Assembly: GCA_963772985.1 (NCBI GenBank)
Contig: CAVYZP010000036.1
Span: forward strand, 18,401-82,400
Direction of reading: 5' to 3'
DNA: 64,000 nt
Source: an uncultured Chloroflexia bacterium
Lineage (GTDB): Bacteria; Chloroflexota; Dehalococcoidia; Dehalococcoidales; Fen-1064
The notes under the pieces were generated by a model. That model did no database searches. It saw nothing but the letters and a program-made list of their open reading frames with translations, and was not told where the DNA came from. Below are positions 53,222 to 61,492 of this stretch, one piece after another (positions within the stretch are counted from its first letter, which is position 1; every line of letters begins with the position of its first letter). A program made the translations under genes and the position numbers.

Positions 53222-53229
53222 CGATTTCC
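53222..53229. repeat. target-site duplication, left copy (CGATTTCC)
   Basis: Identical octamer at 61485-61492. Each copy directly abuts a TIR on its outer side. Confidence 0.85.
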
Positions 53230-53246
53230 GGTAATGGTGCAGTTTG
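53230..53246. repeat. left terminal inverted repeat GGTAATGGTGCAGTTTG
   Basis: Exact reverse complement of 61468-61484. Confidence 0.9.
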
Positions 53247-53294
53247 GTTTTGAGAATAATTGAAAAGCATCTAAATCTGTGCTACGTTTAAATT

Positions 53295-53444
53295 ATGGCT
53301 AAGAATAAAAAAGTTAAAAAACAACAACCAGACGTAATTGAGAATGCTTTTAGAGTGTTTACAGAATCAGTCAGTGAAGATAGGTTTAATGAGATAAAAG
53401 CTAATAAACCTAAGTTGCCGGATAAATCTCAATCCACAAAATAA
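53295..53444 (+). CDS. possible 49-aa Lys-rich mini-protein (not in ORF track)
   Basis: Manual translation gives MAKNKKVKKQQPDVIENAFRVFTESVSEDRFNEIKANKPKLPDKSQSTK. Confidence 0.25.
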   Translation: MAKNKKVKKQQPDVIENAFRVFTESVSEDRFNEIKANKPKLPDKSQSTK

Positions 53445-53490
53445 TCAATCGCTATTATTGAACAAACGCTAAAAGCGAAAACTTTTAATA

Positions 53491-53793
53491 TTATTCCATT
53501 CCCCATTTTTTCAATCTTTTCTTAGTGCAACCAACACACGTGCAATTAATTGGATGGTTGTCGAACCTTCTTGCAACACAATCTACACATGTGCAATAAA
53601 TGGGATGATTATTAATAGGATTTCTGTTTGTGTAGAAAGGTCTATTATCAAATCCACAAGAACTACAAATTAGCGTCAGAGCATTTACTGTTAAACCCTC
53701 ACAATGTCTACAAAATAGGCTTGAATTATCTAGTTTTTTGCGTTCCTTATCGTTTTCCTTGTCTTTCCACCAGTCTCTATCTTCAATACCCAT
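53491..53793 (-). CDS. Cys-rich 100-aa protein: zinc ribbon plus tandem HPIxCTCVxC knuckles
   Basis: CRHC-x11-CSSC, then NHPIYCTCVDC and NHPINCTCVGC. RBS TGGAG. Third gene of a tight operon. Confidence 0.65.
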   Translation of the reverse strand: MGIEDRDWWKDKENDKERKKLDNSSLFCRHCEGLTVNALTLICSSCGFDNRPFYTNRNPINNHPIYCTCVDCVARRFDNHPINCTCVGCTKKRLKKWGME

Positions 53794-53821
53794 TTTAATT
53801 ACTCCATGTAAAAGTAATCAT

Positions 53822-54148
53822 TTACCGTGTAAATTTAATAACAATCGCCTTATATTCCAATGTCCCGCTTGCTACAGTATATTTACACTCAATTGCTAGA
53901 CATGAAAAGCTATCATCTAATATATTGTAAAACAAGGCATGTTTAGAGCACTTCGGGCAATCTGATAATTGAGGTATCGTTTTCCGGCGGTCAGTTTCAC
54001 GTTTTTGCTCTAACTTCTTGGCTAATTCAAACGGATTCACTTCACCAAATATTGAATTTGGTTTGTCATGAACGTAAGCAGAGCAATCAGTACATGCCCC
54101 GCTTTTACCTTTTGAAGTGAAATATGTACACCAAGAACCACATTCCAT
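53822..54148 (-). CDS. Cys-rich 108-aa protein with two zinc-ribbon-like motifs
   Basis: CGSWC-x11-CTDC and CPKC-x15-CLAIEC. Separated by 4 nt from the upstream gene. Confidence 0.6.
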   Translation of the reverse strand: MECGSWCTYFTSKGKSGACTDCSAYVHDKPNSIFGEVNPFELAKKLEQKRETDRRKTIPQLSDCPKCSKHALFYNILDDSFSCLAIECKYTVASGTLEYKAIVIKFTR

Positions 54149-54152
54149 TTTA

Positions 54153-54359
54153 TTATCTCATTCTAACAATGTGTCCTAGCCAATAACGTATGCCACCCAC
54201 TGCACACCAACACACAATCCCCAAAATAAAAAATAACCATCCCTCAACCATGTGAGATGAGCCACAAGACACAAGACTAATAATCATAAAAATAAAACCG
54301 ATTATTGCTAATACTACCATAGCCAAGCGTCCGAGCGTACCCCTTAAAAAGTCTCTCAT
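54153..54359 (-). CDS. 68-aa two-TM membrane mini-protein
   Basis: MRDFLRGTLGRLAMVVLAIIGFIFMIISL...WLFFILGIVCWCAVGGI. ATG at 54359 follows GGAG. Confidence 0.6.
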   Translation of the reverse strand: MRDFLRGTLGRLAMVVLAIIGFIFMIISLVSCGSSHMVEGWLFFILGIVCWCAVGGIRYWLGHIVRMR

Positions 54360-54403
54360 TTTATCGCTCCATAGCCTCACTTTTTAAAATCGCAGTTGCT
54401 CTC

Positions 54404-54431
54404 ATTATAATCTTTCATATGAATTTGTCAA
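54404..54431 (-). promoter_or_regulatory. consensus sigma70-type promoter for the three-gene minus-strand operon
   Basis: Minus strand reads TTGACA-16nt-TATAAT (plus-strand TGTCAA at 54426-54431, ATTATA at 54404-54409). Confidence 0.7.
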
Positions 54432-59219: not shown

Positions 59220-59797
59220 TGAGAACCATCTACACTTTTCGTAAAAAGGATAAATTCTGGATTGTTAAATGTGCCAGTGATACCACAATCAAAGAATCTA
59301 TTTATAAATCGCCTATTGAGGCAATCAATAAATTCTTTATTGCTCACAAATTTGAGAGCATAGAGAATTTTGATATTGTCATACCTCAATCTGTGCCTGA
59401 ATCTATCATAATCCACAAACCACGCAGATACAGAAAATTACCTAAAGAGATAATCTCAAAACCTATTCCGGTGATTGACGACACTACCTGGGGTAATAGA
59501 CCTATTCCAAAATCTACCATTGAATTTCAATATGGCTCGAAATGGGTTGCAGTAATTCCACCTTACAAAAAAGAAAATATTTATTATCTCAATTACCAAT
59601 TACCAGAAAATAACAAAGTAGTCATTAAATACGGCTCAAAATCTCAAGATGTGCAGGTTATCAACGGAAATTTAAAACACGATGTATTTATTGACTTAGG
59701 TGAGTCACAAGCCCATGTCTATTTAAAGAATCAGAGATTAAGAATAGATATTTTCAGTGGGCAAAAAGATATTTTTAAAAAGTTAATGCTCAATTAG
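59219..59797 (+). CDS. hypothetical 192-aa protein, start overlaps the transposase stop (TAATG)
   Basis: ORF only. No family recognised. Confidence 0.5.
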   Translation: MRTIYTFRKKDKFWIVKCASDTTIKESIYKSPIEAINKFFIAHKFESIENFDIVIPQSVPESIIIHKPRRYRKLPKEIISKPIPVIDDTTWGNRPIPKSTIEFQYGSKWVAVIPPYKKENIYYLNYQLPENNKVVIKYGSKSQDVQVINGNLKHDVFIDLGESQAHVYLKNQRLRIDIFSGQKDIFKKLMLN

Positions 59798-60210
59798 TTT
59801 CCGTGGTTATACAGAGTAAAATTTCTGTCGAACCAAAAAATATGAAAAACATCATTCCTTCTTACACCAACCATTGGGGCATTATCATGAAATCGAATGG
59901 CTATTATATTTTCGTCTTCCGAAATTGTTGAGGGAATTGGAACTTTGAGTGAATCCCTTGAAATGATTTCTTTTCCAAGTAAATGACGGTCAGATGAGTT
60001 TATCTGTTGCCACGATAGTGAACTTAATATTCTCATGGTGTCAGTAAAACCAATTTTTTGCTCTTTAGAACACAAAGATATACAATAGTTAGTTTGCAAA
60101 TAGATAAATGAAAAAATTGGTTTTCCCGTAATCGGTTGGCTGGCCGGAATCGGGTAAGTTGAATTTTTTATTTTTACCGATTGTTTTTTCTTTTTTAAAC
60201 TGCGAGCCAT
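59794..60210 (-). CDS. 138-aa candidate toxin partner of the Panacea-domain protein
   Basis: ATG overlaps the upstream stop (TAATG). Lys-rich N-terminus. C-terminus is IIAIRFHDNAPMVGVRRNDVFHIFWFDRNFTLYNHG. Confidence 0.5.
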   Translation of the reverse strand: MARSLKKKKQSVKIKNSTYPIPASQPITGKPIFSFIYLQTNYCISLCSKEQKIGFTDTMRILSSLSWQQINSSDRHLLGKEIISRDSLKVPIPSTISEDENIIAIRFHDNAPMVGVRRNDVFHIFWFDRNFTLYNHGN

Positions 60211-60665
60211 TATTTGTTGTTATCGTCTTCCACGAATTGGCTAAAATAATCTATCAATGATTGATGGCTTATTTCGATTCCTGGGACGTCTTCTTTATAG
60301 GCATTCTTCCAAGGAGGTTCTTCATGAGTCATCTCTCGAAGTTTCCATGCTGAATATTGTCCAAACTCATTGTAAATGTCGTTTAAAAAATCCATCGTTT
60401 CTGCATCATAGATGCCAAAATCTATTTCTTCCGATGGTATTGGATTACTACCGTGTTCTTTGTACGCATGGTATACATCAGCGACTACAGGGCCATGCGC
60501 CCAAGCTTCAATCCTGTCAAGAAAAAGTGGTTCGCCATACAAACAAAGATGAAAACCTTGTGCGTAATAAAGCAATTTTTGAAGTTTCAGATTTGTGATA
60601 AGGTCGCCTGTCTCATCATCTGTGAGCGAGAGAAAGTAACGAGCAACATCAATAGCTGATAACAC
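60210..60665 (-). CDS. DUF4065 / Panacea-domain (SocA/GepA-like) antitoxin-type protein
   Basis: DVARYFL...NLKLQKLLYYAQGFHLCLYGEPLF...IEAWAHGPVVADVY. GTG start after GGGAGAAG. Confidence 0.8.
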   Translation of the reverse strand: MLSAIDVARYFLSLTDDETGDLITNLKLQKLLYYAQGFHLCLYGEPLFLDRIEAWAHGPVVADVYHAYKEHGSNPIPSEEIDFGIYDAETMDFLNDIYNEFGQYSAWKLREMTHEEPPWKNAYKEDVPGIEISHQSLIDYFSQFVEDDNNK

Positions 60666-60813
60666 TTTACTTCTCCCATGAACTATTTAAATAGCTATAG
60701 TAGCACACGCCATATATGTATGTCAATACCCTGTCTACATATTGAACTATAAGACAATATTAATAGACTGTCAATCACGAAATTACAAAATATCACGCCT
60801 AATGATAACAATT

Positions 60814-60829
60814 TTGTAAAATTTTACAA
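60814..60829. promoter_or_regulatory. perfect 16-nt palindrome TTGTAAAATTTTACAA in a divergent spacer
   Basis: Read directly. Lies between the PanA-type operon and ORF 60926. Confidence 0.35.
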
Positions 60830-60925
60830 TGTCTTAACATGGTAATTTAGTACTAATATTGAATAAATCACAATGTTAGTTGTAGAATAGGGCAAACATT
60901 CTACTGAGCAAAATGGAGAATTGAA

Positions 60926-61171
60926 ATGTCAGATGAATGGAAGCAAGTTAAACTTAAAAGCAGGCCAGGTGTGGCAAACGGTGGAGGCAAAGCACTAGAT
61001 TTGGAAAATTACGATATAGCCGAATGGCTCAAAAATGCAATCAACCATCGTTTGTTCGACATACAGATGCACCCATATGTGGTATTCATTTTCAAAGGCA
61101 AACATCGAATTTATAAGGTCACTTCAGGTAATCGCAGTCACAGTATAATGATTCAGTATAAGGAAAAATAA
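60926..61171 (+). CDS. hypothetical 81-aa protein
   Basis: ORF with a TGGAGA RBS. Confidence 0.45.
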   Translation: MSDEWKQVKLKSRPGVANGGGKALDLENYDIAEWLKNAINHRLFDIQMHPYVVFIFKGKHRIYKVTSGNRSHSIMIQYKEK

Positions 61172-61186
61172 AACGAATCTACTGCA

Positions 61187-61450
61187 ATGCTTTTAATTAT
61201 TGGTACAGTAATTTTACTCATAATCTTAGTGCTAGTTATTTTTAAAATACTGGAGATAATTCGACGAGGAAAGCAAGAAAAATTTAAATCGCCTGAAAAA
61301 CCACCACTAAAAAAGAAAACAGAATCAATAATTTATTGTCCAAGATGTCATTACAAAATGTCTATCCCGTTCCAAAAACCAGATGATATTTATGGGAACG
61401 TAAAAAGTCATTTATGCCCCGTTTGTCATACTTTTATGCGGATACTCTAA
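61187..61450 (+). CDS. 87-aa TM-anchored zinc-ribbon protein
   Basis: N-terminal TM segment LLIIGTVILLIILVLVIF, then CPRC-x23-CPVC. No clear RBS. Confidence 0.4.
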   Translation: MLLIIGTVILLIILVLVIFKILEIIRRGKQEKFKSPEKPPLKKKTESIIYCPRCHYKMSIPFQKPDDIYGNVKSHLCPVCHTFMRIL

Positions 61451-61467
61451 TTTTTTGTTTTTCATTT

Positions 61468-61484
61468 CAAACTGCACCATTACC
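61468..61484. repeat. right terminal inverted repeat CAAACTGCACCATTACC
   Basis: Exact reverse complement of 53230-53246. Confidence 0.9.
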
Positions 61485-61492
61485 CGATTTCC
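61485..61492. repeat. target-site duplication, right copy (CGATTTCC)
   Basis: Identical to 53222-53229. Confidence 0.85.

Follow-up and report, generated by a model that had tools for sequence, protein, structure and literature searches.

An uncultured Dehalococcoidales bacterium carries, flanked by a HAD-IIB phosphatase gene on one side and an xdh/CO-dehydrogenase-like operon on the other, 8.26 kb of AT-rich DNA (positions 53222–61492 of the window, the 64,000-nucleotide stretch of contig CAVYZP010000036.1 analysed here), which raises the question of what this segment is, how it came to lie there and whether it belongs to an undescribed type of mobile element. We interpret it, with a probability of about 0.9, as an IS1-family DDE transposon with passenger genes that inserted into the spacer between the phosphatase gene and the operon and was later disrupted by an insertion sequence (IS) of the IS21 family.

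Ends, insertion site and transposase

The left terminal inverted repeat (TIR), GGTAATGGTGCAGTTTG (53230–53246, + strand), matches the right TIR (61468–61484, − strand) at 17 of 17 positions, the one being the exact reverse complement of the other; with up to three mismatches allowed, the pair are the sole matches to this sequence in the window (0.11 expected from shuffled sequence), and end-to-end similarity of the two termini ceases beyond 17 bp. Abutting both ends on the outside is a direct repeat of the octamer CGATTTCC (53222–53229 and 61485–61492, no strand assigned). The element spans 8,255 bp, or 5,532 bp once the nested IS21 (2,717 bp) and one copy of its ATGGAG duplication are removed, which agrees with the sizes of 8.26 and about 5.5 kb given in a first-pass annotation of the window. 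That annotation had also proposed perfect 17-bp TIRs with an 8-bp target duplication and had predicted that deletion of the element would leave a plain spacer; the TIRs are borne out by the window itself, the duplication and the spacer by conspecific genomes.

Loci were gathered by exact-sequence look-up of the flanking xdh-like FAD-subunit protein and belong to one species, labelled ‘Dehalococcoidales bacterium’ at NCBI. A search for the empty site found it in seven assemblies (the ERZ272499xx series and GCA_964571045.1), where the HAD gene is followed by 284 bp and then by the xdh-like operon, in flanks 99.8–99.96% identical to those of the window. All seven carry the predicted sequence CCATCTTAGCCT-CGATTTCC-CTATCGTTTGACATC, with a single octamer, and the occupied locus is found in long-read contigs of the ERZ250394xx series and in two metagenome-assembled genomes (MAGs). 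The element was thus gained by insertion with an 8-bp target duplication.

Composition sets the insertion apart from its surroundings. The interior is AT-rich as first described (33.7% G+C without IS21), but the background of 65% proposed with it does not hold, since the flanks are at 50–52%; IS21 itself has 47.5%. Along the sequence, G+C drops from about 52% outside to 29–39% inside and returns to about 47–52% only at 56000–58250, over the nested IS21.

The transposase gene is split, as had been noticed, into a 5′ part (55654–55862, + strand) that encodes a helix-turn-helix (HTH) and the first catalytic Asp, D66, where IS21 cuts it, and a 3′ part (58586–59219, + strand) that encodes the catalytic region with D99, D138 and E202. 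Joined, the two form a single open reading frame (ORF) of 280 aa. Metagenome proteins of the same length, 280 aa, match it from end to end with 81% identity, and it passes the Pfam gathering score for PF03400 (DDE_Tnp_IS1; 31.6 bits against 24.1). In hhalign, a family profile built from 30 sequences aligns with InsB of Escherichia coli K-12 (probability 93.4%, E = 2.4e-7, 118 columns, 31% identity) through the matched motifs DEIW/DEQW, AIDAD/AYDS, TSDGHRLY/TDGWPLY and IERQNL/IERHNL, and D66, E67, D99, D138 and E202 are invariant across the family and aligned with InsB; a search of solved structures with the transposase profile gave no match. The termini point the same way. IS1A, read from NC_000913.3, has the ends GGTGATGCTGCC... 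and GGTAATGACTCC..., which start GGTGATG and GGTAATG; the element starts GGTAATG at both ends, like the right end (IRR) of IS1A, conforms to the pattern GGnnnTG and matches the family consensus GGTAGTGGGTCAGTTTGAA. IS1 duplicates 8–9 bp of its target, and the 8-bp duplication seen here, confirmed by the empty site, falls within that range.

Several observations weigh against this interpretation. The score of the transposase against the NCBIfam model for IS1 family transposases, NF033558, is 66.3 bits, under the cut-off of 100; BLASTP aligns it with E. coli InsB over only 39 residues, with 38% identity there; and the InsA/InsAB′ frameshift organisation is absent, the classical IS1 group having an insA/insB′ −1 frameshift and a length of 0.74–1.2 kb where this element has a single 280-aa ORF and 5,532 bp. 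An IS21-free copy of this exact element was not found at any site, and IS21 is present in every occupied copy seen, which bears on the order of events. NF033558 is still the best-scoring IS model for the protein (IS6, 23.7 bits; IS1595, 18.5 bits). Given the 39-residue match and the lack of a frameshifted insA–insB′ pair, the protein is, judged by its sequence, a single-ORF member that stands far from classical IS1 within the family; that the 5.5-kb unit itself was mobile is inferred from the target duplication and the relatives.

By analogy with IS1, the 280-aa transposase would bind the TIRs, of about 17–20 bp, through its N-terminal HTH, and its catalytic residues D66, D138 and E202 would join the TIR 3′ ends to target phosphates staggered by 8 bp, so that insertion into the 284-bp spacer duplicated CGATTTCC. 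The core consists of the left end, where a promoter and the small basic ORF lie, followed by o58, the transposase, o192 and the right end, and there are two cargo slots. In this copy they contain the Cys-rich/membrane operon, the winged-helix protein o174, a SocA/Panacea-type pair and the orphan ORFs o81 and o87; the pair, a putative toxin–antitoxin (TA) module, probably has a stabilising or defensive role for the host of the element. IS21 would have landed later, in transposase codons 69–70, with loss of self-mobility. As its transposase is interrupted, the window copy is probably non-autonomous and would need a transposase in trans to move; mobilisation by a related intact transposase is conceivable, for example by that of L115 (relatives and further copies of the locus are denoted by L numbers), which comes from the same community and whose ends differ at one position.

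A clade of cargo carriers

The proposal that the element might be an undescribed transposon type can be judged from its relatives. A scan of one genome per GTDB species returned 528 relatives of the transposase; the best 80, which are 54–62% identical to it, come from Acidobacteriota, Patescibacteria, Chloroflexota, Bacteroidota, Planctomycetota, Verrucomicrobiota, Nitrospirota, Methylomirabilota, Armatimonadota, Gemmatimonadota and Alpha-, Gamma- and Deltaproteobacteria. Overall, relatives 55–81% identical to it are spread over many phyla and are found in viral contigs and on plasmids as well, plasmids of cultured Methylocapsa, Mesorhizobium, Acidiphilium and Hoeflea among them. In a first survey of 84 transposase copies, from the loci of those best 80 relatives and of three closer metagenomic ones, an inverted GGTAGTGGGTCAGTTTGAA pair with an exact target duplication (almost always 8 bp, occasionally 9 bp) was found at 60, delimiting elements of 1,817–6,271 bp with a median of 3,122 bp. 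IMG/VR viral contigs yielded 193 further relatives; 81 copies were examined in this second survey, and TIR pair and duplication were present at 36 (1,323–4,141 bp). Across both surveys, the 96 delimited copies measure 1.3–6.3 kb, with a median of about 3 kb, and 95 of them are at least 1.8 kb long and carry extra genes, the smallest element, L181 (1,323 bp), having only the left-end ORF and the transposase. Three candidates were rejected along the way: L091, at 5,532 bp equal in length to the IS21-free element, is not a free circular copy of it but a different 3.39-kb relative with chromosomal flank; transposase-only contigs of 1.0–1.3 kb have no TIRs and are assembly fragments, not cargo-free IS copies; and an RES–Xre pair on an Acidiphilium plasmid lies outside that element's right end and is not cargo.

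A small basic ORF lies about 30–70 nucleotides (nt) inside the left end in 41 of the 60 elements of the first survey (for example L079, 3403–3642), with the consensus ..PRD.NQLA..IV..ATGE...KNPAAVALGRLGGLKGGKARA..LTPE.R.EIA.KAA.ARW; the family has no match in Pfam. In the window its counterpart is o49 (53295–53444, + strand), a short form that starts 66 nt from the tip and whose N-terminal motif, ..QPDVIENAFRVFTES.., aligns with the left-end ORF of those 41 relatives; counterparts of 41–45 aa, retaining the N-terminal half, occupy the same position in L091 and L092. The left-end ORF is conserved across the wider family. The tail motif ...GGKARA..LTPE.R.EIA.KAA.ARW also heads some P63C-domain cargo proteins, such as that at 8830–9882 of L036.

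Close relatives illustrate how the window copy is put together, and the independent insertions of L107, L115, L091 and L092 each have an 8-bp duplication of their own, in favour of the transposon reading. L092 (transposase 75% identical, duplication GGAAAGGC) is 6,271 bp long and carries a methyltransferase with an ApaLI-like endonuclease, an nSTAND NTPase and an NYN protein; L091 (72%, duplication GCAAGGGG) has 3,388 bp. In L112 and L113 the transposase is 80% identical and is followed by an o192 homologue, with an o58 homologue (65%) upstream in L112. L115, from the same metagenome series, has an intact transposase (78%), 7,639 bp including an IS21 and the duplication AATTAATA, and has o49, o100, o108, o75 and o58 in common with the window; its o100–o108–o75 genes are more conserved (87–92%) than its transposase, which points to exchange of cargo modules between elements. 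A 2,694-bp derivative, L107 (8426–11119) and L111 (6158–8851), lies elsewhere in Dehalococcoidales contigs of the same samples, with identical 18-bp ends and the duplication GGATTAAC; it has only the last 63 transposase codons, retains o49 and o192 homologues and differs in cargo. Pfam domains in relatives' cargo include HTH_3 with Peptidase_M78, an SDH-type protease, P63C, methyltransferase with endonuclease, GmrSD, nSTAND, NYN, HigB and Fic; TA, restriction and other defence-type genes are frequent.

Target sites (n = 58: L011–L092, L104, L107 and the window, 53212–53229 / 61493–61502) share a weak preference with two-fold symmetry, with A at −8 in 33 of 58 (P = 3e-8), T at +8 in 35 of 58 (P = 5e-10) and T nearly excluded from base 1 of the duplication; at the window site, positions +8 to +10 read TTG. 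Derivatives of 43–579 bp that resemble miniature inverted-repeat transposable elements (MITEs), with the same ends and 8–9-bp duplications and without a transposase, occur at JGI metagenome loci (L209, L229, L243, L202 and others), and the duplication of L229, GGAAATCG, is the reverse complement of the window octamer.

The strongest rival reading is that the element represents a distinct, undescribed transposon type, an IS1-derived vehicle dedicated to cargo and different in kind from insertion sequences. The near-universal cargo, its enrichment in TA, restriction and defence-type domains and the conserved, family-specific left-end ORF without a Pfam match would fit such a type; a 2021 TnCentral description has passenger-carrying IS (‘tIS’) confined, at that time, to the IS1595 and IS66 families, and the clade is nowhere described in the literature that we searched for ISMhu11, for passenger genes in the IS1 family and for IS1 transposons with cargo or defence genes. 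We nevertheless consider this reading unlikely. The machinery is conventional throughout (DDE transposase, TIRs, 8-bp duplication), the two-gene, 1,323-bp member makes cargo optional, the ISfinder IS1 family already includes elements as long as about 4.6 kb in its ISMhu11 subgroup, passenger-carrying IS are an established category, and PGAP already names homologues 54–56% identical to the transposase ‘IS1 family transposase’. The first-pass suggestion of an undescribed type goes too far, and the element is no isolated oddity: the clade consists almost entirely of cargo elements of 1.8–6.3 kb that share its ends and its duplication length, and L092 is larger. About ten non-transposase ORFs lie within one TIR pair, as in a tIS or unit transposon, and the second IS is nested in the transposase gene and does not bound the cargo. 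By most of its defining features the element is a passenger-carrying single-ORF IS1-family element (a tIS or small unit transposon). It ranks among the large members of a group of similar elements that is widespread, and it is not a new type; its mechanism is ordinary and, measured against its clade, it is no exception.

A wider proposition is more tentative, and we would put it at somewhat below even odds: that this very widespread clade (at least a dozen phyla, plasmids and viral contigs), itself not formally described, uses its two-gene core, the small basic left-end protein and the single-ORF transposase, as a general vehicle for 1–5 kb of TA, restriction or defence-type cargo, with a target preference, MITE-like derivatives and module exchange.

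Layers and history of the locus

Having judged a type of its own unlikely, we return to the passenger-carrying IS1-family transposon and its history at this site. The IS21-family element predicted earlier (55863–58579, − strand, 2,717 bp) has TG...CA ends, the termini TGATTGTTGCA and TGTTTTTTGCA, repeated AATTCCCCA..TTGCAA motifs and its own 6-bp duplication, ATGGAG (55857–55862 and 58580–58585), all as in the IS21 family. Its istA (56896–58422, − strand; NF033546 IS21 transposase, 253 bits against a cut-off of 160) and istB (56177–56902, − strand; NF038214, 230 bits against 200) both exceed the NCBIfam cut-offs, and a 69-aa ORF lies at 55948–56157 (− strand). The insertion lies at transposase codons 69–70, just past the first catalytic Asp. 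A copy with 96% nucleotide identity is separately inserted in L115 (ena:ERZ25039471:contig_7093, 7740–10457), within an o100 homologue and with the duplication TAGATTGT; IS21 is active in this community, and AT-rich IS1-type elements have been struck by it twice. The simplest order of events would be insertion of the element first and of IS21 second. The locus thus records a recent, polymorphic gain of foreign AT-rich DNA beside an xdh-like operon in an uncultured Dehalococcoidales population, in two layers of transposition, with IS21 inside an IS1-type element.

That the segment is instead a vertically inherited islet, or a remnant of a prophage or integrative element in which the repeats are incidental, is very improbable. 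Its TA pair does match phage protein families, homologues of o108 lie beside a large serine recombinase elsewhere and the transposase family is frequent in viral contigs; yet the exact, one-octamer empty site in conspecific genomes excludes vertical origin and assembly chimerism alike, family scans of the element's proteins revealed no integrase, capsid or terminase gene inside it, and its TIR consensus and duplication length are shared with about 100 other loci. Least probable of all, to the point of being negligible, is an assembly artefact in which an AT-rich foreign contig was fused to the Dehalococcoidales chromosome, as a sharp G+C break at both ends and one odd contig (L007, with the right end joined 220 bp left of the left end) might suggest, because different samples yielded the same junctions in three long-read contigs or more, two MAGs have them too and a short-read unitig crosses the right one, and an 8-bp duplication with a matching empty site is not expected of a chimera.

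L007 (ena:ERZ25039479:contig_18639; 5.76 kb) deserves a description of its own. At its junction (2850–2860), window positions 61484–61490 are joined to 53010–53013, so that the right end plus CGA(TTT), 3–6 nt of flank, is fused to a point in the HAD gene that lies about 220 bp outside the left end; on both sides the contig ends at IS21 boundaries. The TTT microhomology could have given rise to a tandem duplication or a circle, of about 8.48 kb, or the contig could be chimeric. An excised circle with abutted ends was rejected, as 220 bp of left flank and 3–6 nt of right flank lie between the ends, and the joint is not a transposase-type junction.

The flanking genes vary slightly as well. The HAD-IIB phosphatase gene (52411–53173) is split by a 1-nt insertion (an extra G near 52692) in the window and in L002 and is whole (253 aa) in L001 and in the empty-site assemblies; the split reflects an indel error of long reads or else a genuine pseudogene. 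In the empty-site locus of GCA_964571045.1 (L100, 7391–9685) the xdh-like large subunit is called with 562 aa, not 822, and the locus is about 170 bp shorter, which suggests a deletion or an assembly gap.

Cargo and comparison with known systems

With IS21 removed, the ORF order is o49 (+); o100, o108 and o75 (−); o174 (+); o58 (−); the transposase (+); o192 (+); o138 and o151 (−); and o81 and o87 (+). The first-pass count of about 11 cargo ORFs was right in that there is cargo, but three of these ORFs are not free cargo: o49 belongs to the left-end family, and o58 and o192 flank the transposase in close relatives. o58 (55352–55528, − strand) is a zinc-ribbon mini-protein gene divergent from the transposase gene, with a DUF7479 match under the cut-off, and homologues 61–78% identical lie upstream of the transposase, in the same position, in L093, L112 and L115. 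o192 (59219–59797, + strand), whose start codon overlaps the last base of the transposase stop codon, has homologues directly 3′ of the transposase in L091 (45%) and in L112 and L113 (65%), and the transposase-deleted L107 retains one (87%); its structure model, from a four-sequence alignment, is unusable (predicted local distance difference test (pLDDT) score 45.7). Their conservation, which is limited to close relatives, places o58 and o192 in the core of the close subclade, with true cargo confined to two slots.

The contents otherwise follow the first-pass description, which listed near-consensus promoters, zinc-ribbon proteins, a membrane/Cys-rich operon and a Panacea-type pair. The element has 42 sigma-70-like promoter sites, against 26.3 ± 5.6 in shuffled sequence, and those before its units match the consensus at 12 of 12 positions (o75), 11 of 12 (o174, o58 and the SocA gene o151) or 10 of 12 (transposase); an Rfam scan of 52800–61900 at E ≤ 0.1 gave no match. 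The o75–o108–o100 operon (53491–54380, − strand) is preceded by TTGACA-16-TATAAT (54431→54404) and encodes a membrane protein with two transmembrane (TM) segments (o75) and two Cys-rich, zinc-ribbon-like proteins (o108 and o100), none of which has a significant match in Pfam, PADLOC or PHROG. Homologues of o108 adjoin a 543-aa large serine recombinase in L116–L118 (about 8001–11227 in L116), so that different kinds of mobile element carry this Cys-rich family.

o174 (54662–55186, + strand), which has relatives in 39 representative clusters among 1.84 billion proteins, is modelled by AlphaFold2 (pLDDT 94.3) as a long N-terminal helix with a C-terminal winged helix, a fold predicted to bind DNA; Foldseek ranks the winged-helix domains of linker histone H1, DndG and Rok first, with weak E-values of about 0.06, and o174 is probably a DNA-binding regulator. 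Like the proteins of the o75–o108–o100 operon and o192, it belongs to a rare family associated with mobile elements.

In the other slot, the candidate antitoxin o151 (60210–60665, − strand) has a SocA_Panacea domain (88 bits, cut-off 25.7) and overlaps by one base the putative 138-aa toxin o138 (59794–60210, − strand), with promoter-like sites before o151 at 60774→60746 and 60726→60697. The pair matches phrog_1281 (1.9e-52) and phrog_8366 (7.5e-43), and o138 also weakly matches the C-terminus of NsnC (1.8e-6) and MAG6450, with no characterised toxin domain. PADLOC returned two weak matches only for the cargo, PDC-S64 and the NsnC C-terminus, and we therefore claim no known defence system. The last two genes, o81 and o87 (60926–61450, + strand), are orphan cargo, o87 having an N-terminal TM segment and a CxxC...CxxC motif; neither has a family match above threshold or a homologue among the loci gathered.

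IS1 is usually regarded as a minimal insertion sequence of 0.77 kb. The clade described here shows a large branch of the IS1 family routinely carrying several kilobases of passengers, many of them TA or defence-like. Its members are easy to delimit, their ends being conserved over 19 bp and their 8-bp duplications exact, and they form a small class of cargo carriers in which new defence or addiction modules can be sought. Within the ISfinder IS1 family, elements of up to about 4.6 kb are placed in the ISMhu11 subgroup, which we set beside the element by description only; ISMhu11 was absent from the literature searched.

Set beside E. coli IS1A (768 bp), the element has in common with it a DDE_Tnp_IS1 core with aligned DE..D..D..E residues, GGTAATG / GGnnnTG ends and a small gene about 55–66 nt from the left tip (insA in IS1A, o49 here). 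It differs in its single 280-aa ORF without a −1 frameshift, in the absence of the InsA zinc finger, in a left-end ORF without similarity to InsA and in its size and content (5.5 kb against 0.77 kb, with about ten extra ORFs). With tIS it shares the architecture of one transposase, TIRs and a target duplication, with passengers inside the inverted repeats; in contrast to those of IS1595, its transposase is of IS1 type (NCBIfam IS1, 66 bits; IS1595, 18.5 bits), and in its clade cargo is the rule, not the exception, and the left-end ORF is conserved. Tn3-family transposons with TA pairs (PMC7157771) likewise hold a TA module in a DDE transposon beside the transposition genes, with a presumed role in stabilisation or defence, whereas the element has an unrelated transposase, no resolvase or res site, a much smaller size and a SocA/Panacea-type module in a variable slot. 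The o151–o138 arrangement fits a candidate PanA-type antitoxin–toxin pair: as in PanA–PanT (PMC8832971), a DUF4065/SocA_Panacea gene lies immediately upstream of, and overlaps, a small unrelated ORF, and both have phage homologues, although the 138-aa partner here belongs to no characterised toxin family and matches only phrog_8366 and, weakly, NsnC and MAG6450.

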